Assembly: GCA_016779995.1 (NCBI GenBank)
Contig: JADHMO010000001.1
Location: 283,411-347,410, forward strand
Direction of reading: 5' to 3'
Source: Flavobacteriales bacterium
GTDB lineage: Bacteria > Bacteroidota > Bacteroidia > Flavobacteriales > UBA7312
DNA length: 64,000 bases
The notes below the pieces were generated by a model that did not search any database, had not been told where the DNA came from, and worked only from the letters and a program-made list of their open reading frames with translations. Positions 2,034-29,209 of the stretch are shown piece after piece. Every line of letters starts with the position of its first letter. Positions within the stretch are counted from its first letter, which is position 1. The translations under genes were made by a program, and so were the position numbers.

Positions 2034-2813
2034 ATGAAAGATAAATTTGTATCATACCATTGCGAAAATAGAATTGGCTTTATCACTATGGATAGAGCTG
2101 AAAAAAGAAATGCTCTAAATCCTCAGCTTGTTCAAGAGTTAAAAATTGCTTTTGGAACTGCCGAAAAAGATGAAACATGTAAAGTGATTGTATTACAAGC
2201 ACAAGGCCAAGCATTTTGCGCTGGTGCCGATTTGAAATACTTGCAATCCTTACAATCTTTTTCTCACCAAGAAAATGTTGCCGATTCGTCAAGTCTAATG
2301 CAGTTGTTCAAACAAGTTTATTCCTTAGAAAAGGTAGTCATCGCAAAAATAAAAGGACACGCCATAGCAGGTGGTTGTGGTTTGGCTAGTGTTTGTGACT
2401 TATCGGTTGCATCAGATGATGCTAAATTAGGCTATTCTGAAGTTAAAATTGGATTTATCCCTGCTATAGTCAGTGTGTTTTTACTCAAAAAAATCGGCGA
2501 AAGTAAAACTAAAGAATTACTACTTACTGGAAAAACTATATCAGCTACAGAAGCGGCTAGTATTGGATTGATAAACCAAGTGGTTGGCAAGGATATTTTA
2601 GATGATACAGTACAAAACATAGCCGAAAAGCTGTGTCATCAAGCCTCACAACAATCCCTAGCAAGTACTAAGAAATTGATAGCCCATCTGCAAAGCATGT
2701 CGTTAGAAGATGGTCTTAATTTTGCCGTAGAAGAAAATGCAAAAGCTAGAGCTAATGAAGACTGCAAAAAAGGTATTAAATCCTTTCTCAATAAAGAAGA
2801 AATAAATTGGTAG
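2034..2813 (+). CDS. enoyl-CoA hydratase/isomerase (crotonase) family protein
   Basis: 259 aa. Motifs FCAGADLK and AIAGGCGLA form the crotonase oxyanion-hole signature. Confidence 0.85.
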   Translation: MKDKFVSYHCENRIGFITMDRAEKRNALNPQLVQELKIAFGTAEKDETCKVIVLQAQGQAFCAGADLKYLQSLQSFSHQENVADSSSLMQLFKQVYSLEKVVIAKIKGHAIAGGCGLASVCDLSVASDDAKLGYSEVKIGFIPAIVSVFLLKKIGESKTKELLLTGKTISATEAASIGLINQVVGKDILDDTVQNIAEKLCHQASQQSLASTKKLIAHLQSMSLEDGLNFAVEENAKARANEDCKKGIKSFLNKEEINW

Positions 2814-2825
2814 AATTCCTATTGA

Positions 2826-5162
2826 ATGAAAAAGAAAAATACAAAAGAAAACATTTTTAAACGTCTCATACAAAAGTTTAAAATTGAAGATGATAGAACG
2901 AAAAAGATATTTGGTTTTATATTTTTATTTTTATCAATCTACGTATTTGTGGTTTTTGTCTCCTACCTCCTAAACGGAAATATTGACCAAGACAAGACAG
3001 GTAAGCTAACTAATGACATTAGTAATATTGGTGGAGTGTTTGGAAATACTTTGTCGCATTTATTTTTGCGTCATTATTTTGGTATTTCTTCTTTCATTTT
3101 TCCTCTATTGTTTTTCAATTGGGGCTTATCACTCGTCTTTGACAAGACATTATTTTCTATAAAAAAAGGCTTTTCACTTGGTATTCTTGCTGTAGTTTGG
3201 ATTTCTTTATTCTTTGGCTTTTTCACATCTCCTTCAATTTTAGGTGGAGTATTTGGCAGTGAAATGAACGAATTTCTAGCCTTGAGAATAGGAAAAATTG
3301 GAAATGGATTTTTTATTTTTCTATCCTTATTAACTTTCATAATTATACGATTTAATCCAAAATTTAAATTCACCAAAAGCAGTGATGATAAGCAAGAATT
3401 GCCAGAAAATAATGAAATAGCTGATGAAGAATTTAGCTTATCCAACGAATTAGATTTTCAGGAGGAAGAACAAGAACCAATTATCGAGCCGATTAGTCAA
3501 ATAGTTAATCCGCAAACAGAAGATAATAAAGAAGAAATTACACCAAACATAAAACAAGAAGAAAGTAATGATTTAGGAATTGAGGTTCACGTCAACGAAG
3601 AAGATATTTTAAGTCAAAAAGACATCAAAACAAAACTCGAAGAACTCGGAGATTATGATCCTAAGCTTGATCTTTCTAATTATAAAATACCTGCAGTAAA
3701 CTTATTAAATGACTATGGCTCAGGTAAAATAGAAATAGATAAAAGTGAATTGGAGGCTAATAAAAATAGAATTGTCGAAACACTTGCAAATTACAAAATA
3801 GGTATATCTTCTATTAGTGCAACTATTGGACCAACCATAACGCTTTATGAAATTGTTCCAGAAGCTGGTATTCGAATCTCTAAAATCAAAAACTTAGAAG
3901 ATGATATTGCACTTAGTTTATCAGCCCTAGGTATTCGTATCATTGCTCCTATCCCTGGCAAAGGAACTATCGGAATTGAAGTGCCCAATCAAAAACCAAC
4001 GACAGTCTCTATGAAAGCTGTAATTTCTTCCGATAAGTTTCAAAATTCTGAAATGGAATTACCTGTTGCTTTTGGTAAAACTATTTCAAACGAAACCTTT
4101 GTCGCTGACTTAGCTAAAATGCCTCACCTTCTAATGGCAGGAGCTACTGGTCAAGGTAAATCTGTTGGGTTGAACGCCATATTAGCATCATTACTCTATA
4201 AAAAACACCCTGCTCAAGTCAAATTTGTATTGGTAGATCCAAAGAAAGTGGAACTCACATTATTCAATAAAATAGAAAGACACTTCCTAGCCAAACTACC
4301 AGACTCCGAAGAGGCAATCATTACTGACACCAAGAAAGTAATTAATACCCTCAATTCCTTATGTATTGAGATGGATCAACGCTATGATTTACTTCAAAAT
4401 GCTCAATGTAGAAACATTGTTGAATACAACAAGAAGTTTATTGCTAGAAAATTAAACCCTAATGACGGGCATAAATACTTACCCTATATTGTCTTGGTTA
4501 TTGACGAATTTGCTGACCTTATAATGACAGCCGGTAAGGAAGTAGAAACGCCAATTGCTCGACTGGCTCAACTTGCTAGAGCTATTGGAATACATCTAAT
4601 AGTAGCTACTCAACGCCCTTCAGTAAATGTTATTACAGGTATCATTAAAGCCAATTTCCCTGCACGTGTAGCTTTTAGAGTTACCTCAAAAATTGACTCT
4701 AGAACAATTCTAGATGCTGGAGGTGCCGACCAATTGATTGGTCGTGGTGATATGCTTATCTCTCTAGGTAGTGACTTAATACGATTGCAATGTGCATTTA
4801 TCGACACTCCAGAAGTAGAAAAAATCACCGATTTCATTGGCAATCAAAGAGCCTATCCCGAAGCCTTTTTACTACCTGAATACATTGGAGATGCCGAGGG
4901 TGGCACTAGCGATGCTGACCTCGATGACAGAGATGTCATGTTTGAACAAGCAGCACGAGTTGTCGTACAACATCAGTCTGGCTCTACTTCACTCATACAA
5001 CGTAAATTAAAACTAGGCTACAATAGAGCTGGAAGAATCATTGACCAACTGGAAACAGCTAGAATTGTAGGTCCTTTTGAAGGAAGTAAAGCCCGTCAAG
5101 TACTAATTCGTGATGAAATGGCGTTAGAAGAAGTATTAAATGAATTAAACAACCCAAATTAA
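2826..5162 (+). CDS. ftsK: DNA translocase FtsK/SpoIIIE
   Basis: 778 aa. It has N-terminal transmembrane helices, an acidic linker, the Walker A motif GATGQGKS, VIDEFADL, and a C-terminal winged-helix gamma domain (LIQRKLKLGYNRAGRIIDQLE). Confidence 0.95.
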   Translation: MKKKNTKENIFKRLIQKFKIEDDRTKKIFGFIFLFLSIYVFVVFVSYLLNGNIDQDKTGKLTNDISNIGGVFGNTLSHLFLRHYFGISSFIFPLLFFNWGLSLVFDKTLFSIKKGFSLGILAVVWISLFFGFFTSPSILGGVFGSEMNEFLALRIGKIGNGFFIFLSLLTFIIIRFNPKFKFTKSSDDKQELPENNEIADEEFSLSNELDFQEEEQEPIIEPISQIVNPQTEDNKEEITPNIKQEESNDLGIEVHVNEEDILSQKDIKTKLEELGDYDPKLDLSNYKIPAVNLLNDYGSGKIEIDKSELEANKNRIVETLANYKIGISSISATIGPTITLYEIVPEAGIRISKIKNLEDDIALSLSALGIRIIAPIPGKGTIGIEVPNQKPTTVSMKAVISSDKFQNSEMELPVAFGKTISNETFVADLAKMPHLLMAGATGQGKSVGLNAILASLLYKKHPAQVKFVLVDPKKVELTLFNKIERHFLAKLPDSEEAIITDTKKVINTLNSLCIEMDQRYDLLQNAQCRNIVEYNKKFIARKLNPNDGHKYLPYIVLVIDEFADLIMTAGKEVETPIARLAQLARAIGIHLIVATQRPSVNVITGIIKANFPARVAFRVTSKIDSRTILDAGGADQLIGRGDMLISLGSDLIRLQCAFIDTPEVEKITDFIGNQRAYPEAFLLPEYIGDAEGGTSDADLDDRDVMFEQAARVVVQHQSGSTSLIQRKLKLGYNRAGRIIDQLETARIVGPFEGSKARQVLIRDEMALEEVLNELNNPN

Positions 5163-20449: not shown

Positions 20450-20457
20450 TATATTTG
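20450..20457 (+). promoter_or_regulatory. -7 box TATATTTG, candidate promoter of the seven-gene type I R-M operon
   Basis: Perfect TAnnTTTG match. It overlaps the TTG start proposed by the ORF track, which suggests the real start is the in-frame TTG at 20491. Confidence 0.35.
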
Positions 20458-21048
20458 TACTCGTTGTACTTAAATATAAATACTCATAGATTGAAAAAGG
20501 AACTAAAACATATTACCAAAATTCAAACAGGAGTCTTCGCTAAGACTGTTGCAAAAGGCGATATAACTTATCTGCAACCTAAGTATTTTGACGAACTAGG
20601 TAAGCTTACCGTAAACTTGGAGCCTGACTTAAATTCAGTTGGCGTCTCAGAGAAGCATATCCTAAAACAGGGAGATATAATATTTGCTGCTAAAGGCTCA
20701 AAAAACTTTGCCTTTCATTTTAAACTGCAAGAGCTAGCTGCAGCTGCATCCACTTCATTTTTTGTTATCAAAATACATGATGAATCTGTTCTTCCAGAAT
20801 ATTTAACCTGGTACCTGAACCATCAAAACACAATGAAGTATTTAAAGTCATTTGCTAGAGGGACTTCTATCCCCTCTATATCTAAAGATGTACTTAATAA
20901 CCTAGAAATCATGATACCCGCAATCGAAAAACAAAAACTCATTTATAAGATAGACAACCTACGATCTAAAGAGAGACAAATAACAATGGATATTCTTTCG
21001 CTCAAGCAAGCACTGAATCAACAACAACTTTTTAACGAAATAAAATAA
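20455..21048 (+). CDS. hsdS: type I restriction-modification specificity subunit, half-size (single target-recognition domain)
   Basis: 197 aa or fewer. It has one TRD followed by one conserved helical region (IPAIEKQKLIYKIDNLRSKERQI). The start is non-ATG and uncertain (20455 or 20491). There is a 5-nt gap to hsdM. Confidence 0.65.
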   Translation: MYSLYLNINTHRLKKELKHITKIQTGVFAKTVAKGDITYLQPKYFDELGKLTVNLEPDLNSVGVSEKHILKQGDIIFAAKGSKNFAFHFKLQELAAAASTSFFVIKIHDESVLPEYLTWYLNHQNTMKYLKSFARGTSIPSISKDVLNNLEIMIPAIEKQKLIYKIDNLRSKERQITMDILSLKQALNQQQLFNEIK

Positions 21049-21053
21049 TCACA

Positions 21054-22625
21054 ATGGATAAGACGATAACTCAAAAAGACATCAATAATGCCGTGTGGAA
21101 AGCCTGCGACACCTTTAGAGGCAGCATAGACCCTAGCGTCTATAAAGACTATGTACTTACTATGCTCTTCATAAAATACTTAAGTGATGTGCATGATGAT
21201 AAGTATAAAGCGTACTTAGAGAAATACAACGGAGACGCTGAGCGAGCTTCGCGCGCCATGCGTCACGAACGATTCGTAGTACCAGAACACAGTCACTTTA
21301 AATTTCTGTACGATAGTCGGAACGAATCCAATATAGGAGAACTCATCAACATTGCTTTGACCGATTTAGAGGAAGCTAACCGAGAAAAACTATACAGTGA
21401 AGACGGTGCTGGGATCTTCCAAAACATTGACTTCAACAACAGCAAACTAGGTGAGCCAAAAGACAAAAACACACGTCTTAAAAACCTGCTTTTAGATTTT
21501 AATTCCGAGAAGTTGGATCTACGCCCATCACACCTAGATGGTAACGATATTATTGGTGGTGCTTACGAATACCTAATTGCAAATTTCGCCAGTGATGCTG
21601 GTAAAAAAGCGGGTGAATTTTTTACGCCAGCCGAAGTCTCTACCCTACTTGCTAAGCTTACCAAGTCTAAACCAGGTTCTCGTATAGCAGATATTACATG
21701 TGGCTCGGGATCACTACTTATTAAAGCTGGACAAGAAGTTGGCTCACCTAACTTTTCTCTATATGGACAAGAAGCCAATGGTAGTACATGGGCACTTGCC
21801 GTTATGAATATGTTCTTGCATGGATTCGACAATGCGACAATTCGTTGGGGAGACACTATACGTAACCCCAAACTAAAGGAAGGTGATGAGCTCATGAAGT
21901 TCGACACGGTAGTTGGGAATCCGCCCTTTTCTTTGGATAAATGGGGAAAGACTGATGACAAAGAAGAAGATAAAGCAGCCGACAGCTTTGATCCAGAAAC
22001 TGATCAATACAACAGATTCTGGAGAGGTGTTCCACCTAAAAGTAAAGGAGATTGGGCTTTTATAACCCATATGATTGAAACCACCTATGAAGGCACAGGT
22101 AAAGTGGGCGTAGTAGTACCGCATGGTGTTTTGTTTAGAGGGGCAAGCGAAGGAAAGATCAGAAAAAAACTCATTGAAGAAAATCTGCTTGAAGCGGTAA
22201 TTGGCTTACCAGCCAACCTATTTTTTGGAACGGGTATACCAGCTGCCATTTTAATTTTTAATCGTGGAAAAGGAGACAATACACATGTGCTATTTGTGGA
22301 CGCAAGCGAATGCTATGAATCCGCTAAAAACCAAAACAGGCTGCGTTTGGAAGAAGACATTACTCCTATTGTCGAAACCTATGAGCAATTTAACAAAGGG
22401 CAATTACAACCAGGTGTAGCTAAAGAGAAATATAGCTATGTAGCCACATTTGATGAAATAGCCGAAAACGACTTTAACCTCAATATACCACGATATGTTG
22501 ACACTTTTGAGGAAGAGGCTGAAGTAGATATTGCTTCAGTGCAAAAAGAGATTATTGAACTAGAAGGTGAATTGAAAACAGTTCAAGAGGATATCAATAG
22601 ACATCTAAATCAGTTAGCACAATGA
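21054..22625 (+). CDS. hsdM: type I R-M N6-adenine DNA methyltransferase subunit M
   Basis: 523 aa. It has an HsdM N-terminal domain, the AdoMet motif DITCGSGSLL, and the catalytic motif GNPPFS. Confidence 0.95.
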   Translation: MDKTITQKDINNAVWKACDTFRGSIDPSVYKDYVLTMLFIKYLSDVHDDKYKAYLEKYNGDAERASRAMRHERFVVPEHSHFKFLYDSRNESNIGELINIALTDLEEANREKLYSEDGAGIFQNIDFNNSKLGEPKDKNTRLKNLLLDFNSEKLDLRPSHLDGNDIIGGAYEYLIANFASDAGKKAGEFFTPAEVSTLLAKLTKSKPGSRIADITCGSGSLLIKAGQEVGSPNFSLYGQEANGSTWALAVMNMFLHGFDNATIRWGDTIRNPKLKEGDELMKFDTVVGNPPFSLDKWGKTDDKEEDKAADSFDPETDQYNRFWRGVPPKSKGDWAFITHMIETTYEGTGKVGVVVPHGVLFRGASEGKIRKKLIEENLLEAVIGLPANLFFGTGIPAAILIFNRGKGDNTHVLFVDASECYESAKNQNRLRLEEDITPIVETYEQFNKGQLQPGVAKEKYSYVATFDEIAENDFNLNIPRYVDTFEEEAEVDIASVQKEIIELEGELKTVQEDINRHLNQLAQ

Positions 22626-23767
22626 TGAATCGTGAAATTCCTTCAGATTGGAGCTATAAAAAATTAGGTGATATTGTCAAATTTCTTGACGGAAAAAGAA
22701 AGCCGATAAAAGAAGCTGATCGTCAAAAAATGAAAGGACCTTACCCTTATTATGGTGCTTCTGGCATCATTGATTATGTAAACGATTACATATTTGATGA
22801 TGATTTAATCTTACTCGGAGAGGATGGAGCTAACATTCTAAGCAGAAGTACGCCACTAGCCTTTAAAATATCTGGAAAAACTTGGGTAAATAATCATGCC
22901 CATGTCCTTAAGCCAATCAACGGAACGGTTCTAGGTTATTTGGTGGAATACCTCGAAAGTATAAGGTATGAAAAATACAATACGGGGCCGGCACAACCTA
23001 AGTTGAACAAAGCAGTTTGTGAAACTATCCCAGTTTTATATCCACCTATTTCCGAACAATTAGCCATAGCCAAGGCCTCCGAGACAATGGACAAAGCCAT
23101 AAACGGCAACAACCAACTCATAGCGCAAAAAGAGTTGCGTAAAAAATGGCTGATGCAAAATTTGCTCACAGGTAAAAAACGTTTGAAGGGTTTTCGTGGT
23201 GATTGGAAAGAGTATCAATTAGGCCAAATGTTTGCGGAGAGAAATGAACGTAACAATGATGGATTTGCGCTTTTATCTATTGGACAGAATGGAGTTTATC
23301 CGCAAGAAGATTCTATTAAAAAAGATACTTCCAACTCTGACAAATCGAAATACAAAAAGATCTGTATCGGTGACATCGGCTACAACACTATGCGCATGTG
23401 GCAAGGTCGAAGTGCTTTGTCAAATTTAGAAGGAATTGTAAGTCCTGCATATACCATTCTAAAACCAAGAGAGAATGCAGACGCATTGTTCTTTTCATAC
23501 CTATTCAAAACACCTAAGCTTGTCAACTTATTTTGGAGAAACTCTCAAGGTTTGGTTGGTGATACCCTTAACTGTAAGTACAAAGATTTCTCAATAGTAA
23601 AAACCATGCTGCCTCTAAAGGACGAGCAGATTGCTATCGCTCAAATCTTACAAACAACAGACAGGGAACTTGATCTGCTCAGGGCAAAAACCGACAAGCT
23701 TAAAGAACAGAAAAAAGGAATGATGCAGGTATTGCTGAGTGGTAAAAAACGACTAAAAATTAATTAA
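22622..23767 (+). CDS. hsdS: type I R-M specificity subunit S (two TRDs)
   Basis: 381 aa. The conserved regions are duplicated (ISEQLAIA...LLTGKKRLKGF and KDEQIAIA...LLSGKKRLKIN). It overlaps hsdM as ATGA. Confidence 0.9.
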   Translation: MMNREIPSDWSYKKLGDIVKFLDGKRKPIKEADRQKMKGPYPYYGASGIIDYVNDYIFDDDLILLGEDGANILSRSTPLAFKISGKTWVNNHAHVLKPINGTVLGYLVEYLESIRYEKYNTGPAQPKLNKAVCETIPVLYPPISEQLAIAKASETMDKAINGNNQLIAQKELRKKWLMQNLLTGKKRLKGFRGDWKEYQLGQMFAERNERNNDGFALLSIGQNGVYPQEDSIKKDTSNSDKSKYKKICIGDIGYNTMRMWQGRSALSNLEGIVSPAYTILKPRENADALFFSYLFKTPKLVNLFWRNSQGLVGDTLNCKYKDFSIVKTMLPLKDEQIAIAQILQTTDRELDLLRAKTDKLKEQKKGMMQVLLSGKKRLKIN

Positions 23768-24223
23768 ATGAAAATACTCGGAATAAGAAACTCACCTAAG
23801 GTCATACGGTTTTGCATCTTAGATGGAAATGCAACCAGCTTCTCTTTTTCAAATGCAAACGGAGAAAATAAAATAGATCTACCTAAATCCTTGAAGACTG
23901 AAGCTGAAATCTATCAATGGGTTAAAAGTGAATTCAACCGTTTGTTTGATAAATATGGGCCTTTTGACCATATGGCAATAAAGCAAAATGAAAATGTACC
24001 CACTAGGTACAGCAGTGTAAAGCCTGTCATGTTTCTAGATTGTATTGCCTGTCTAGTGGCAATAGACAATAACACGCCTTTTTCGTCTCATTTATACACC
24101 TCATTGGGTACAAAGAGTAAAGAAGTAGTAAAACATATTGAATCACAAGTTTCAAAGAGCAACACCCATTGGGACAGCAAAATGGCTGACGCAGTTGTAG
24201 CAGCAATAAAAAATATACAATAG
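23768..24223 (+). CDS. hypothetical 151-aa protein; by eye a RuvC/RNase H-like fold lacking most catalytic acidic residues
   Basis: The ATG directly abuts the hsdS TAA stop. A by-eye alignment to E. coli RuvC pairs ILGIRNS with ILGIDPG, MAIKQ with AIEQ, and [10 protein letters not shown] with DAADALAIAI. No signal peptide or transmembrane segment. Confidence 0.35.
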   Translation: [151 protein letters not shown]

Positions 24224-25288
24224 ATGAGTTTTAAAGCAGGAGATAACATATACAAATTCACTCTAATTAAGAAGTTAGGCGGCAATTTTGGTGAGGTTTG
24301 GCATGCGAAAGACAACAGCATTAATAAAGAAATTGCTCTTAAGATTCTTGAACCTGCTTTTGAACCCATTGCCAAATTATTAGACGAAGCGAGGATTGGA
24401 AACAAATTCAATCATCGTAACCTTCTTCCGATTCACTATGCTGATGTGGCATCTGTTGGCCCGAAGACTTACACACTAATTTCTCAAGAGTACTATCCAA
24501 ATGGGGATATCACTAATCAATTGAACACCCACAACTTTTTACCACTACCACAAGTGATGAGTGCTCTTCAAGATATTCTGTTTGGCTTGGAATATCTTCA
24601 TAATAGCGGGTTCTATCATAACGATATAAAGCCTGGTAATATATTGATGGACGATCAACAATCAGCAGTTCTTGCTGATTATGGAATTGCTGGATTTTCT
24701 CCAAGTATTACCCCAGTTACCCCTAAGAACTCGTATAAGGTTCATAGAGCACCTGAAACAAATGGCAGCTCTGCGAAAATCAGTATTCAATCCGACATCT
24801 TTCAGGTTGGCTGCACAGCGTATAGACTACTTAATGGCGTAAGTACTTTAAAAAATGAATTTATCACTCTTGGTGCTTCGGACTATGAAAATAAAAAAGC
24901 GAATGGAAAAATTCCAGATAGAAAATCGTACCAACCATTTGTTCCGAAGAAACTAAAAACCATCATCAACAAAGCGCTGAATGTTAATCCTGGTGACAGA
25001 TTCAATTCAGCCTTAGAGATGAGACGAAAACTAGAAAAACTTCACTTTCCGGGTTATTGGACAGCTGATAAAAAATCGAACCTAATTGGTGTTGGGAAAA
25101 AGTACTTATATCAATTTGTGGTAGTAGCACTACCTAAAGACCTTTTCAATTTCACGGCTACAAAAACCAATCAAAAAACAGGAAAAACAACGAAAATCGG
25201 TCAGTTCACTGTTAAGAAGAAGAGTGAGTTAGAAATGAATAAAATAAGAACTCAATTCATTGAATGGGTTGTAGAAAATGCAAGTTAA
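24224..25288 (+). CDS. Hanks-type (eukaryotic-like) Ser/Thr protein kinase with an ~80-aa C-terminal extension
   Basis: 354 aa. Motifs seen: Gly loop LGGNFGEV, the VAIK-like Lys in IALK (K40), catalytic loop HNDIKPGN (D134, N139), DYG in place of DFG (D152), APE (HRAPE), and DIFQVGC (subdomain IX). Confidence 0.85.
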   Translation: MSFKAGDNIYKFTLIKKLGGNFGEVWHAKDNSINKEIALKILEPAFEPIAKLLDEARIGNKFNHRNLLPIHYADVASVGPKTYTLISQEYYPNGDITNQLNTHNFLPLPQVMSALQDILFGLEYLHNSGFYHNDIKPGNILMDDQQSAVLADYGIAGFSPSITPVTPKNSYKVHRAPETNGSSAKISIQSDIFQVGCTAYRLLNGVSTLKNEFITLGASDYENKKANGKIPDRKSYQPFVPKKLKTIINKALNVNPGDRFNSALEMRRKLEKLHFPGYWTADKKSNLIGVGKKYLYQFVVVALPKDLFNFTATKTNQKTGKTTKIGQFTVKKKSELEMNKIRTQFIEWVVENAS

Positions 25289-28200
25289 TATGGATACACC
25301 TAGCTTTAAAGAAGACCATATCAGCCAGATTCCTGCTTTACAATTATTGCAAAATTTAGGCTACAAATACCTCACTCCAGATGAGGCCATGCAATACAGA
25401 GGCGGTAAAGCAACTCAGGTGATACTTGAGGATATTTTACGCAAGCAGCTAAAAGAAATCAACTCCATCAAAATTGGTAGTAAAAGAGAAGAACGGTTCT
25501 CTTCTGGTAATATAGAAATGGGTATTCGCGCATTAAAAGAACTCCCCATGAATGAAGGTTACATTAATGCCTGTGAAACAACCTACAACCTTCTTACCCT
25601 GGGCAAAGCGCTTGAGCAAAGTATTGATGGTGACAAGAAAAGTCATACGCTGCGCTATGTAGATTGGGAAAACATTGAAAATAACGTGTTCCATGTAACG
25701 GAAGAGTATAGTGTGATGCGCAGTACCAGCAAAGACCACTACCGCCCAGATTTGGTGTTATTTGTTAACGGTATTCCTATTTCAATTATTGAATGTAAAC
25801 GTCCTGATATGAAAGAGCCTTTAAAACAGGCCATCAGTCAGCACCTCAGAAACCAACAAGCAGATGGAATTAGAGGTTTATATGTCTATTCTCAACTATC
25901 CTTAAGTATTGCAACCCAAGAAGCTTCGTATGCCACAAATGCAACTCCCGAAAAGTTTTGGTCTAAATGGCAAGAAAAATTTGATTCGGAATCTGAAGAA
26001 AATGAATACAACAGGAAATTATTGGAGCTGAAGAACCAACCACTATCAACTGATGAAAAGGACAAACTATTCTCTGATCGGTTTAGATATGTGAGACAAT
26101 ATTTTGATGCACTTGAAAAGGAAGAAATCCTTCCAACAATTCAAGATCAGTACCTCTACGGTCTATGCCGTCCTGAGCGATTAATGGATCTAATTTTCAA
26201 TTTTATACTTTTCGATAATGGCACTAAGAAAGTAGCTCGCTATCAACAATATTTTGCCATCAAAAAATCGACAAAGCGTATTCAGCACTTAGAAGGTGGC
26301 AGCAGACAAGGAGGTGTAATTTGGCATACACAAGGAAGCGGAAAATCACTTACCATGGTGATGCTTGCTCAGGCTATAGCTATGGATAAAAGCATCCGCA
26401 ACCCTAAAATTATTCTGGTAACGGATAGAACCGATTTGGACAGACAAATTACTGGGACATTTAGAAAATGTGGTCGCTTTGTAGAGAATGCTTCTACTGG
26501 ACAACGGCTTGTGGAGTTGCTAGAAAGCAAAAGTGATGCAGTTTTAACCACTATCATCAACAAGTTTGTGGCTGCAATGAAAAAGATCAGAAAACCTCTT
26601 GATAGCCATGATATTTTTGTATTAGTAGATGAAGGTCACAGATCGCAAAACGGAACTTTCAATATTGAAATGCAAAAGACATTACCAAATGCATGTTTTA
26701 TTGCTTTAACCGGAACTCCCCTATTCAAAAAGGATAAAAGCACAGCTGCTAAGTTTGGAGGAATTATTGACGCCTATACAGTAGATCAAGCTGTAAAAGA
26801 CAAGGCCGTTGTGCCACTTTTATATGAGGGTCGTTTGGCAAAACAAACGGTAAATGCTAGTCCTTTAGATACTTTTTTTGAGATGGTTTCAGAACCATTA
26901 ACAGAATATCAGAAAGCTGATTTTAAGAAAAAATTTAGTCGTGCTGATCAATTGAACAGTGCGGAACAAAAGATATATGCCGTTGCATGGAATATTAGTC
27001 TTCATTTCAAAGAAAACTGGCAAGGGACTCCCTTCAAGGCACAGCTAGTTTGTGATAAAAAGATTAATGCGGTTCGATATAAAGAGTTTCTTGATGAAAT
27101 TGGAATAGTTACAAGCGAAGTTCTCATATCCGCTCCAGATGATCGTGAAGGGGAAGACAGTGCTTTTGGGAAATCACCTGAAAAAGTAAATCAATTCTGG
27201 AAACGGATGCTAGATGAACATGGCAATTCGAAAACTTACGAGAAGAATGTCATTAGTCGATTTCAAAACCAAGAAAACCCAGAGATTATTATTGTAGTGG
27301 ATAAACTATTAACTGGTTTTGATGAACCAAAGAATACGGTTCTTTATTTGACCCGAAACCTGCATAGTCATAAGCTTCTACAAGCCATTGCCCGTGTTAA
27401 TCGAGTTTATCCTGATAAAGAGTTTGGCTACATCATTGATTACTACGGAGTAATTGAAAACCTAGATGATGCGCTAACAATGTACTCATCTTTTGAGGAT
27501 TTTGATGCAGACGATTTAGAAGGCACCCTAATCAATATCAGCGAAGAAATTCAAAAGCTTCCTCAAAAGTATTCCGAGTTATGGGATATTTTCAAGACTA
27601 TAGCTAACAAACGTGATGCAGAAGCCTATCAGCTATTGTTAAAAGATAAAGCTATAAGAGTTGTATTCTACGATAAGCTTGCCGCCTTTGCAAAAGGGCT
27701 AAAACTAGCCTTATCAACGATGCAATTCCATAAAGAGGTAGACGAAAAAACAATTGATCGCTATAAAGAAGACTTGGCGATGTTCATGAAGTTAAGGATG
27801 GCAGTTGTGGAGCGATACTCAGACACAATTGATTACAAACAATACGAAGGGCAAATTCAAAAACTCATTGATACGCATATCACCACAGAAAAGGTAGAAG
27901 TTATAACTGAACTCGTAAATATTTTTGATAAAGAGAAATTCCAGCAAGAAGTAGAGAACACAACTGGAAAAGCAGCTAAAGCGGATAAAATTGCAAGTAG
28001 AACTGCAAAGCACATTTCCGAGAAAATGGATGAAGATCCTGCTTTCTACAAGAAGTTTTCTCAAATGTTATCAGAGACAATTGCAGAATACGAAGAAAAG
28101 AGAATCAATGAGGCTCAATATTTGAGTAAAGTCCAAGAAATAATGGAAAATGTACTCGCGCATACTGATAGCGACATACCTGAAAGTTTGCAGCAAAGGG

Positions 28201-28514
28201 AAGTTGCTAAAGCGTTCTATGGCCTAACAATTGAAGCACTTATTGACAAAGTACAAGATTCAGTTGTAAGAAGAGAAGTTGCCGTTCAATCGGCTTTACG
28301 TATAGATGATTTGATAAGAGAATCGGTATTGGATACAGAAAAACCGATTATTGATTGGCAACAGAAATCCAATATCACAGGCAAGTTACTTATTGAAATA
28401 GGAGATTACCTTATTGATGAGGTTAGAGATAAATACAACGTTTCATTGACTTTTGGTGAGATGGATCAAATAGCCAACAACTTTATTGAAGTTGCAAAAC
28501 TGCGCTACAAATGA
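25278..28514 (+). CDS. hsdR: type I restriction enzyme R subunit (helicase/endonuclease)
   Basis: 1078 aa. It has a PD-(D/E)xK nuclease motif (PDLVLFVNGIPISIIECK), Walker A motif QGSGKS, and DEAH-like VDEGHRSQ. An alternative ATG at 25290 lies 1 nt after the kinase stop. Confidence 0.95.
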   Translation: MQVNMDTPSFKEDHISQIPALQLLQNLGYKYLTPDEAMQYRGGKATQVILEDILRKQLKEINSIKIGSKREERFSSGNIEMGIRALKELPMNEGYINACETTYNLLTLGKALEQSIDGDKKSHTLRYVDWENIENNVFHVTEEYSVMRSTSKDHYRPDLVLFVNGIPISIIECKRPDMKEPLKQAISQHLRNQQADGIRGLYVYSQLSLSIATQEASYATNATPEKFWSKWQEKFDSESEENEYNRKLLELKNQPLSTDEKDKLFSDRFRYVRQYFDALEKEEILPTIQDQYLYGLCRPERLMDLIFNFILFDNGTKKVARYQQYFAIKKSTKRIQHLEGGSRQGGVIWHTQGSGKSLTMVMLAQAIAMDKSIRNPKIILVTDRTDLDRQITGTFRKCGRFVENASTGQRLVELLESKSDAVLTTIINKFVAAMKKIRKPLDSHDIFVLVDEGHRSQNGTFNIEMQKTLPNACFIALTGTPLFKKDKSTAAKFGGIIDAYTVDQAVKDKAVVPLLYEGRLAKQTVNASPLDTFFEMVSEPLTEYQKADFKKKFSRADQLNSAEQKIYAVAWNISLHFKENWQGTPFKAQLVCDKKINAVRYKEFLDEIGIVTSEVLISAPDDREGEDSAFGKSPEKVNQFWKRMLDEHGNSKTYEKNVISRFQNQENPEIIIVVDKLLTGFDEPKNTVLYLTRNLHSHKLLQAIARVNRVYPDKEFGYIIDYYGVIENLDDALTMYSSFEDFDADDLEGTLINISEEIQKLPQKYSELWDIFKTIANKRDAEAYQLLLKDKAIRVVFYDKLAAFAKGLKLALSTMQFHKEVDEKTIDRYKEDLAMFMKLRMAVVERYSDTIDYKQYEGQIQKLIDTHITTEKVEVITELVNIFDKEKFQQEVENTTGKAAKADKIASRTAKHISEKMDEDPAFYKKFSQMLSETIAEYEEKRINEAQYLSKVQEIMENVLAHTDSDIPESLQQREVAKAFYGLTIEALIDKVQDSVVRREVAVQSALRIDDLIRESVLDTEKPIIDWQQKSNITGKLLIEIGDYLIDEVRDKYNVSLTFGEMDQIANNFIEVAKLRYK

Positions 28515-29209
28515 TGATGGCTTCTATTCAATTCGGCTCAAAACAAATTGACTATCAGATTGAATATTCTGTTCGAAAGACTTTGGGAATTACTGTCACT
28601 CCAGACATGGACGTTTTAGTTAAAGCTCCAAAAGATAGCCCTATTTCAAAAATTGAAGAAAATCTTCAGAAGAAAGCTCCCTGGATAATTAAACAACAAA
28701 GTTTCTTCTTGGCCTATCATCCTAAAACAACTGAAAGGAAGTATATCTCAGGAGAAACACATTTATATCTCGGTAGACAATACCTACTTAAAGTGGAAGA
28801 AGAAAAAATAGAATCGGTTAAGCTGAAAGGGAAATACATTCAGGTTAAAACTCCTGATAGGTCAAGAACGAAAAAACTGCTTAATGAATGGTACTTGAAT
28901 CATGCCAAGTCAAAATTCTATTCAACCGCACTCCCTCTGATTGAAAAATTCAAGAAATACAATGTTGAACCAAGTTCCATTGTTCTACGGGAAATGCCGA
29001 CACGCTGGGGAAGCTGTACACCTAAAGGCAAAATCATTTTAAATCCTGAATTGATTAAAGCTCCAAAGGGTTGCATCGAATATGTCATCATACATGAATT
29101 GTGTCATTTGATTCATCACGATCACACAAGAAAATTTATCGAATTACAAACGAAAGAAATGAAGGATTGGGAAAAATGGAAAACGAAATTGGAAAAATTG
29201 TTAGCATGA
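28511..29209 (+). CDS. YgjP/DUF45-like (M48-related) zinc metallohydrolase
   Basis: 232 aa with an HExxH motif in IHELCHLIHHDH. It overlaps the hsdR stop as ATGA. Confidence 0.75.
   Translation: MMMASIQFGSKQIDYQIEYSVRKTLGITVTPDMDVLVKAPKDSPISKIEENLQKKAPWIIKQQSFFLAYHPKTTERKYISGETHLYLGRQYLLKVEEEKIESVKLKGKYIQVKTPDRSRTKKLLNEWYLNHAKSKFYSTALPLIEKFKKYNVEPSSIVLREMPTRWGSCTPKGKIILNPELIKAPKGCIEYVIIHELCHLIHHDHTRKFIELQTKEMKDWEKWKTKLEKLLA

Follow-up and report, generated by a model that had tools for sequence, protein, structure and literature searches.

We suggest that P0001, a 151-amino-acid protein encoded in a 64,000-nucleotide stretch of DNA from a Flavobacteriales bacterium (contig JADHMO010000001.1 of assembly GCA_016779995.1; hereafter the window), is a non-catalytic regulatory or sensor subunit with a RuvC fold, which belongs to a two-protein abortive-infection kinase module of the Stk type. 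We hold this reading with moderate confidence. The P0001 gene occupies positions 23768–24223 of the window on the forward strand and is followed directly by the gene of its putative partner, the Hanks-type protein kinase P0002 (354 amino acids, 24224–25288, same strand). The suggestion builds on the fold of P0001, on the replacement and conservation of residues at its former catalytic site, on the obligate synteny with the kinase gene, on the mobility of the pair and on its homology to a gene pair of phage 933W.

By the spread of its relatives, P0001 is a real, conserved gene under selection. Among the 90%-identity clusters, 77 relatives have E<=1e-3, and their length is almost always exactly 151 amino acids; at 50% identity there are 118 clusters. 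These numbers rule out a chance open reading frame (ORF). The relatives are annotated in RefSeq as ‘hypothetical protein’. P0001 has no match in Pfam, NCBIfam or PADLOC, and sequence searches of PDB chains with the protein and its alignment return matches at chance level only. It is also not the cell’s own RuvC. The genome encodes a separate, canonical RuvC on another contig (G000:C26), thus P0001 is not the housekeeping enzyme.

The structure of P0001 is predicted with high confidence. The AlphaFold2 model, built from 28 sequences, has a predicted local distance difference test score (pLDDT) of 91.7 and a predicted template modelling score (pTM) of 0.88, and its elements follow the order β1-β2-β3-α1-β4-α2-β5-...-αC, which is that of the RNase H-like fold. 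In the Foldseek search against the PDB, RuvC entries occupy ranks 1–12 (best 7xhj, 9e-10), and E. coli RuvC (1hjr) is matched with a query-normalised TM score (TMq) of 0.80 and a root-mean-square deviation (rmsd) of 2.5. VIA-align superimposes the model on T. thermophilus RuvC (4ld0) with Z 17.2 over 145 aligned residues (rmsd 2.7) and on P. aeruginosa RuvC (6lw3) with Z 17.0. These matches span 143–145 of the 151 residues. Other junction resolvases follow at Z of about 12–13, and the RuvC domains of Cas9, Cas12 and IscB together with TEFM, Spt6 and Tex at Z 10–12. The viral and ESM Atlas structure libraries agree with a RuvC-like fold. The modelled P0001 is of the RuvC/RNase H-like fold with the RuvC topology, as a by-eye alignment to E. 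coli RuvC had proposed in an earlier reading of the sequence alone (the sequence-only reading).

Some of these structural matches are instructive in themselves. The C-terminal domain of TEFM (Z 12.3), the YqgF-like domains of Spt6 and Tex (Z 10.7 and 10.2) and the RuvC domain of Cas12k (Z 10.9) are non-catalytic and serve as precedents for the reuse of a resolvase fold without cleavage. However, they have no specific sequence kinship to P0001, and none of them is a stand-alone subunit of a kinase.

The kinship to RuvC is also visible at the level of sequence. P0001 and RuvC (PF02075) have in common the motifs ILGI-x and AI-x-Q and a C-terminal xADA helix, whereas the P0001 gene is coupled to a kinase gene and that of RuvC to ruvAB. 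When the P0001 family (91 sequences) is compared by hhalign with 12 genuine RuvC proteins, drawn from this genome and its relatives, the two align with Prob 77% and E 2e-5. At the same time PF02075 itself does not match P0001 at E<=1 in the Pfam search, and it matches only 1 of 35 P0001 relatives (E 0.0019, below the cut-off). Judged by its catalytic residues and by the curated model, P0001 is not a member of the RuvC enzyme family. A further candidate, the resolvase-clade RNase H-like family DUF3010 (PF11215), came up as an Atlas feature lead (score 0.93) and was rejected, since Pfam shows no match for P0001 and matches in 3 of the 35 relatives only, with a best E of 0.03. A search of 301 genomes of the phylum with PF11215 gave no match, which is uninformative, as the control genomes are silent too.

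The hhalign register reproduces the by-eye alignment. ILGIR of P0001 lies on ILGID of RuvC, which places R7 at RuvC D7, and AIKQ lies on ALEA, which places K72 at RuvC E66. Across the alignment of 91 divergent relatives, to which all residue counts refer, position 7 is R in 79 sequences and K in 9, and position 72 is K in 90. R14 is found in 88 of the 91 and E75 in 89; position 91 is acidic in 82 (D 59, E 23), and position 141 is D in 79 and E in 4. G5, N29, P39, W51, E55 and W135 are near-invariant as well. The conserved acids E75 and D/E91, which are close to the old site, were absent from the sequence-only reading.

That reading had D7, E66 and D138 of RuvC replaced by R, K and K, with D141 kept. 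The assignments of R7, K72 and D141 stand, whereas the equivalent of D138 is ambiguous. The gapless motif match gives K138 (and D141 at D141); the low-confidence global hhalign alignment instead sets D136 on the first Asp of the C-terminal helix. Position 138 is not conserved (Q 37, K 25, E 7 of 91), and position 136 is D in 60 sequences and N in 24. Within the RuvC acidic tetrad (D7, E66, D138 and D141), D141 alone is kept, and the equivalent of D138 is not conserved. The two outcomes named beforehand as refuting, namely no RNase H-like fold and acids conserved in a correct alignment, did not occur.

The conservation of R7 and K72 across 91 diverse relatives indicates that the site was remodelled and not left to decay. 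In the alignment, a cluster of conserved basic residues has taken the place of the two acids on the strands of the two-metal site, and some acids nearby remain. With the strand-1 Asp and the strand-4 Glu fixed as Arg and Lys, canonical two-metal DNA cleavage by P0001 is very unlikely. The conservation at the old site argues for a retained, selected function of the cleft, which could be a salt-bridge network in place of the metals or a phosphate- or ligand-binding site. The median isoelectric point (pI) of the P0001 family is 8.7, which is moderately basic, compared to 9.5 for true RuvC; the C-terminal domain of the kinase is basic as well (pI 9.5). These pI values and the conserved basic cluster at the former metal site are hints compatible with nucleic-acid binding, and no proof of it.

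The tie to the kinase is strict. We collected 52 loci, 50 from species-representative genomes and 2 from assemblies, and tblastn with the window proteins places a gene for a Hanks kinase of about 350 amino acids directly downstream of the RuvC-like gene in all of them. The loci span at least eight phyla and include Bacteroidota, Alphaproteobacteria, Acidobacteriota, Planctomycetota, Chloroflexota, Thermodesulfobacteriota, Armatimonadota and Lactobacillales. No catalytic motif is lost in the kinase family; in P0002 they are K40, E55, H132-N-D134-x-K136, N139, D152-Y-G154 and A176-P-E178. The C-terminal part of the kinase is a conserved β-rich domain of about 80 residues. The P0002 model (pLDDT 92.5) matches PknB and CaMKK-type kinases in Foldseek, where the list for the whole kinase is filled by kinase domains, and an Atlas search with residues 272–354 gave no usable match.

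Internal stop codons occur in the RuvC-like gene of 2 of the 50 copies, both from metagenome-assembled genomes (MAGs). One is a TAA at codon 15 (L042:8001-8453) and the other a TAG at the codon aligned with Q73 (L046:137-565). The kinase frame is open in both. These two copies could be pseudogenes or assembly errors.

A physical complex of the two proteins is predicted. With paired alignments of 35 rows each, the prediction for P0001 and the kinase reaches an ipSAE of 0.62 (0.65, 0.58 and 0.62 in the individual runs), compared to 0.00 for the best of three controls. The mark of 0.62 is attained by 58 of 80 solved complexes and by 2 of 110 mismatched pairs, a calibration that holds only roughly for custom alignments such as these. 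The runs share at least 90% of contacts, the pLDDT of both partners is at least 87, and we know of no solved RuvC–kinase complex that the model could have memorised. On the side of P0001, the predicted interface is formed by the β3-α1 loop (residues 37 and 39–41, with P39 invariant) and helix α1 (54, 58 and 61–62). On the side of the kinase, it involves residues 64–65 of the αC-β4 loop, 109–127 of helix αE and 271–274. P0001 is thus predicted to sit on the back of the kinase C-lobe, outside the substrate groove and outside the C-terminal domain. The αC-β4/αE region of kinases is a common allosteric hub. The link between P0001 and the adjacent kinase, proposed in the sequence-only reading, is supported by the synteny and by the complex prediction, which passes its controls. 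The contact suggested there at kinase residues 274–354 is not the one predicted.

This arrangement bears on the alternative that P0001 is purely an antitoxin-like inhibitor, which would block a toxic kinase by stoichiometric binding as in type II toxin–antitoxin systems. The RuvC fold would then be a scaffold with a cleft that has no ligand, and the kinase would be activated by the loss or turnover of P0001 when host expression stops. A small upstream gene followed by that of a larger enzyme, with the stop and start abutting or overlapping, fits this explanation, and so does the predicted binding away from the cleft. The two MAG copies in which the RuvC-like gene is interrupted and the kinase frame open also count in its favour. 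They would be tolerable only with another control of the kinase, and they are weak evidence, as they may be assembly errors. However, the cleft residues R7, R14, K72, E75 and D141 are the most conserved in the protein, above most residues of the predicted interface. An idle cleft is hard to reconcile with this, unless the residues make purely structural salt bridges. In addition, P0001 is predicted to touch the C-lobe from behind, away from the active site and the substrate groove. We consider a pure antitoxin unlikely.

The link to phage exclusion, absent from the sequence-only reading, comes through the kinase. In tblastn it is 28.5% identical to Stk of Shiga toxin (Stx) phages over residues 3–273 (E 3e-23); it matches phrog_2361 (4.6e-45) and is also similar to a kinase of SPbeta-like phages. 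According to PMC3681748 and PMC3564112, which cite Friedman et al. 2011, Stk is a kinase co-transcribed with cI, and infection by HK97 activates it, with the result that the infection is aborted. In phage Min27 (L069), an ORF of 153 amino acids (2034–2495) lies directly upstream of stk (2489–3535) and overlaps its start. RefSeq labels it ‘RuvC-like Holliday junction resolvase’, and it matches phrog_3875 with 7.8e-91. The same upstream ORF is present in 933W itself, and SPbetaL7 has an ORF of 167 amino acids in the equivalent position (phrog_3875, 3.6e-22). The profile hidden Markov model (HMM) of the P0001 family covers the whole of the Min27 ORF (25.6 bits, conditional E 5e-10). When the Min27 and SPbetaL7 ORFs are added to the 91-sequence alignment with MAFFT --add, bacterial and phage proteins have G5, R7, P39, K/R72, E75, D/E91, Y110 and D/E141 in common. 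Given this common signature, the catalytic acids were already replaced in the ancestor of the whole kinase-associated clade.

The pairs of 933W, Min27 and phi24B have the architecture of the cassette of the window, with an ORF of about 150 amino acids and a RuvC fold, the end of which overlaps the start of the gene for a Hanks kinase of about 350 amino acids. They are far from it in sequence and differ in location, since the phage pair lies beside cI in the prophage immunity region, whereas the cassette described here lies in a restriction-modification (R-M) operon. The phage ORFs also lack R14, N29, E55 and W135 of the bacterial P0001 family. By profile and signature, P0001 is a distant member of the Stk-kinase partner clade, the phage representative of which is phrog_3875. 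Only 4 of the 35 P0001 relatives match phrog_3875 (best 0.0025), and the relation reads as superfamily-level kinship, not as membership of this phrog. A tblastn search of the phage collection with P0001 itself gave no match; the phage link came via the kinase and the annotation of its neighbour. The RefSeq label ‘resolvase’ probably misleads, since the ORF upstream of stk lacks the catalytic Asp and Glu. In the searchable literature we found no mention of this upstream partner ORF. In Min27, a DUF3024 gene (L069:1625-1966) lies between cI and the RuvC-like/stk pair.

The surroundings of the cassette vary between genomes. In 38 of the 52 loci it lies between hsdS and hsdR of a type I operon, as in the window, mostly with a trailing YgjP-like gene; the other 14 copies are outside type I operons. 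One of them, from a Planctomycetota single-amplified genome (SAG; L033:1714-12833), is flanked by type III genes, for a methyltransferase on one side and a restriction subunit on the other (PADLOC 1e-220 and 1.4e-178, respectively), and comes after a DrmD-like SNF2 helicase. In three alphaproteobacterial copies the kinase gene is followed by an overlapping 360-amino-acid DUF4917 gene (L036:9529-10611, L038:9535-10617 and L046:1662-2744). Only the L036 copy was scanned against PADLOC, where it matches the candidate system PDC-S21 (2.6e-121), and the L046 copy has weak SIR2_2 similarity, which suggests a three-gene variant with a possible NAD-directed effector. For the remaining 10 copies, no R-M genes were recognised in the fetched flanks.

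In the maximum-likelihood tree of the concatenated pair, embedded and free copies are interleaved, with at least five context changes, and copies from different phyla can be nearly identical, for example those of a Paludibacteraceae and an Anaerolineaceae. The P0001 gene was found in 1 of the 21 genomes of the taxonomic family of the window. Hence, the two genes form a mobile unit that is complete in itself. Its strongly preferred site is the interval in R-M operons that separates the modification or specificity gene from the restriction gene. With 14 of 52 copies outside type I operons, the pair does not depend on the Hsd genes. In L018, L019, L031, L045 and L053, an extra 1–2 kb of sequence lies between the kinase gene and hsdR; this gap seems to hold further cargo.

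These contexts allow us to weigh the possibility that P0001 is an adaptor between the kinase and the restriction enzyme. By binding the Hsd complex, or DNA that is branched or in recombination, it would steer the kinase to phosphorylate HsdR, HsdM or the YgjP-like protease. Restriction could then be tuned, for example alleviated once host sites lack modification, or inhibition of R-M could be sensed, as it is by PrrC. The 38 of 52 copies in one slot of one type I lineage with a trailing YgjP-like gene speak for it, together with the copy between mod and res of a type III system, which is the equivalent slot, the tight junctions with hsdS and hsdR, and the precedent of PrrC, whose gene is a guest of a type I locus and which reacts to inhibition of R-M (PMC12707154). 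However, 13 of the 52 copies have no R-M gene in the fetched flanks, and the prophage versions adjoin cI and not R-M genes. The interleaving of embedded and free copies in the tree, with its context changes, means that the pair must work on its own. We regard an R-M adaptor as quite improbable.

The least probable explanation, to which we give very little weight, is that P0001 is an active nuclease with a non-canonical site (E75, D/E91, D141 and perhaps K72, as in Lys-containing nuclease sites), an effector switched on by the kinase. In favour of this, P0001 folds like DNA junction endonucleases and is moderately basic, and the three acids near the former site are conserved clade-wide, phage versions included. 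Against it, the strand-4 acid is Lys or Arg throughout, TEFM and the YqgF-like domains of Spt6 and Tex, which are without these residues, are among the structural matches, and Arg or Lys replaces in 88 of 91 sequences the strand-1 Asp, which is a core catalytic residue of the RNase H-like site in a superfamily that has inactive members with incomplete sites (Majorek et al. 2014, PMC3985635).

We return to the kinase-module reading and propose how a regulatory P0001 could work. The defence role, the direction of regulation and the trigger are inferred here, and the scheme is conditional throughout. P0001 would be made from the same tightly coupled transcript as the kinase. It would dock via the β3-α1 loop (P39) and helix α1 (R58) onto the back of the kinase C-lobe, with the remodelled cleft left free. 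Since both genes are homologous to the cI-linked pair of 933W and Min27, an abortive-infection or exclusion switch is the most likely role, with the kinase as its effector. The RuvC-like subunit would hold or tune the kinase until a phage-derived cue is sensed, which might be a protein of the phage or a DNA structure bound by the old cleft. In the window, the cassette is a horizontally acquired guest in the hsdS|hsdR slot, the position of PrrC in EcoprrI, and would act beside or behind restriction.

Several points weigh against this scheme. The three conserved acids near the old site (E75, D/E91 and D141) make a non-canonical activity possible. P0001 on its own matches phrog_3875 weakly (E 0.012, residues 1–43 only), so the link to the phage pair rests on the family profile and on synteny. 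The match to Stk is limited to the kinase domain, and the C-terminal domains are different or diverged beyond detection. On the side of the kinase, the residues of the predicted interface (the HxN motif and helix αE) are conserved in most Hanks kinases and lend no specific support to the contact. The literature search found no experiment on P0001 or any relative.

In a more specific variant of the kinase-module reading, the remodelled cleft reads a DNA structure, such as a four-way junction, a fork or a flap, that arises in phage replication or recombination, and the signal passes via helix α1 to the αC-β4/αE hub and switches the kinase on. Arg and Lys would then stand in for the metal ions at the scissile phosphate. 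We put this variant forward tentatively and think it rather unlikely. If true, it would be a DNA-structure-gated Hanks kinase in bacterial immunity, and also the missing sensor of 933W Stk exclusion, so far treated as the work of a single-gene kinase.

Among known defence systems, Hanks kinases are implicated in phage defence in PD-T4-6 of E. coli, Stk2 of staphylococci and MAD6 of MADS (PMC9519451; bioRxiv 10.1101/2023.03.30.534895). The kinase domain of P0002 matches PD-T4-6 models of PADLOC (down to 2.6e-36), and the kinase matches the mad6 model with 4.4e-42; in contrast to the cassette, these systems are defined without a RuvC-fold partner. The operon of the window does not qualify as MADS, since the kinase scores 111.9 against the NCBIfam MAD6 model (NF047741; cut-off 460) and the operon has no MADS-specific genes (MAD3, MAD4, MAD7 or MAD8). 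The prrC gene lies between hsdS and hsdR homologues. It is a non-R-M defence gene inside the type I R-M locus EcoprrI and responds to R-M inhibition (PMC12707154), and the cassette is likewise embedded in 38 of 52 loci. However, PrrC, an anticodon nuclease that has an ATPase domain of the ABC type, is an unrelated protein. Some copies of the cassette are free of R-M genes, and they argue that control by R-M is not obligatory. CapK/CapS (PMC13373217) is a different pair, an anti-sigma-type kinase and a STAS protein, and is a conceptual analogue only. Our literature search found no description of a RuvC-like partner of a defence kinase, of kinases in type I operons or of PDC-S21.

The cassette of the window lies within a co-directional run of genes, all on the forward strand, with abutting or overlapping junctions. 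The run starts with a short single-domain HsdS-like gene (20455–21048; Methylase_S 2e-10), followed by the type I methyltransferase gene hsdM (21054–22625; N6_Mtase 6e-97, HsdM_N 8e-24) and hsdS, which encodes a two-domain specificity subunit (22622–23767; Methylase_S 5.8e-26). The ATG of P0001 directly abuts the hsdS stop (TAAATG), and its TAG directly abuts the ATG of the kinase (TAGATG). The kinase stop and the start of hsdR, the gene of the type I restriction subunit (25278–28514; SWI2_SNF2 3e-78, HSDR_N 2.5e-37), overlap by 11 nucleotides. The run ends with the gene of a YgjP-like (SprT/WLM-like) metallopeptidase (28511–29209; YgjP-like 5e-54), which overlaps the hsdR stop. Across phyla, nearly every type I operon that carries the cassette has the YgjP-like gene together with hsdR. 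The Methylocystis parvus plasmid pMpar-1 (L068:2763-3341) also has a short HsdS-like gene before hsdM, the layout of the window, and carries in addition a GIY-YIG nuclease gene between hsdM and the long hsdS.

Environmental sequences contain the same region. Short contigs from two metatranscriptome runs of different studies are 100% identical to parts of hsdS, the P0001 gene and the kinase gene and cover the P0001/kinase junction (24156–24306); RNA libraries may contain DNA, and these contigs are no proof of transcription. Contigs from seawater and algae metagenomes (runs X2 and X5) carry a copy about 95–96% identical, from 23085 through the P0001 and kinase genes past 25288. Upstream of 23085, which lies inside hsdS, the contigs are unrelated to the window and form a loose end in both runs. 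In a close relative, it seems, the first target-recognition domain of hsdS has been exchanged.

Kinase-based phage exclusion is known from 933W Stk, Stk2 and PD-T4-6, and how such kinases sense infection is mostly unclear. What is new is an undescribed obligate subunit. Our analysis indicates that a large cross-phylum branch of these kinases, the 933W prototype included, comes with an obligate and overlooked partner of the RuvC fold. If this partner is a sensor or a gate, it would give a direct handle on the trigger, and it would correct the label ‘Holliday junction resolvase’ on a protein that is probably unable to cleave. It would also define a two-gene cassette that is not modelled by current defence finders such as PADLOC, and would add a well-populated example to the guests that R-M operons harbour between hsdS and hsdR or between mod and res.

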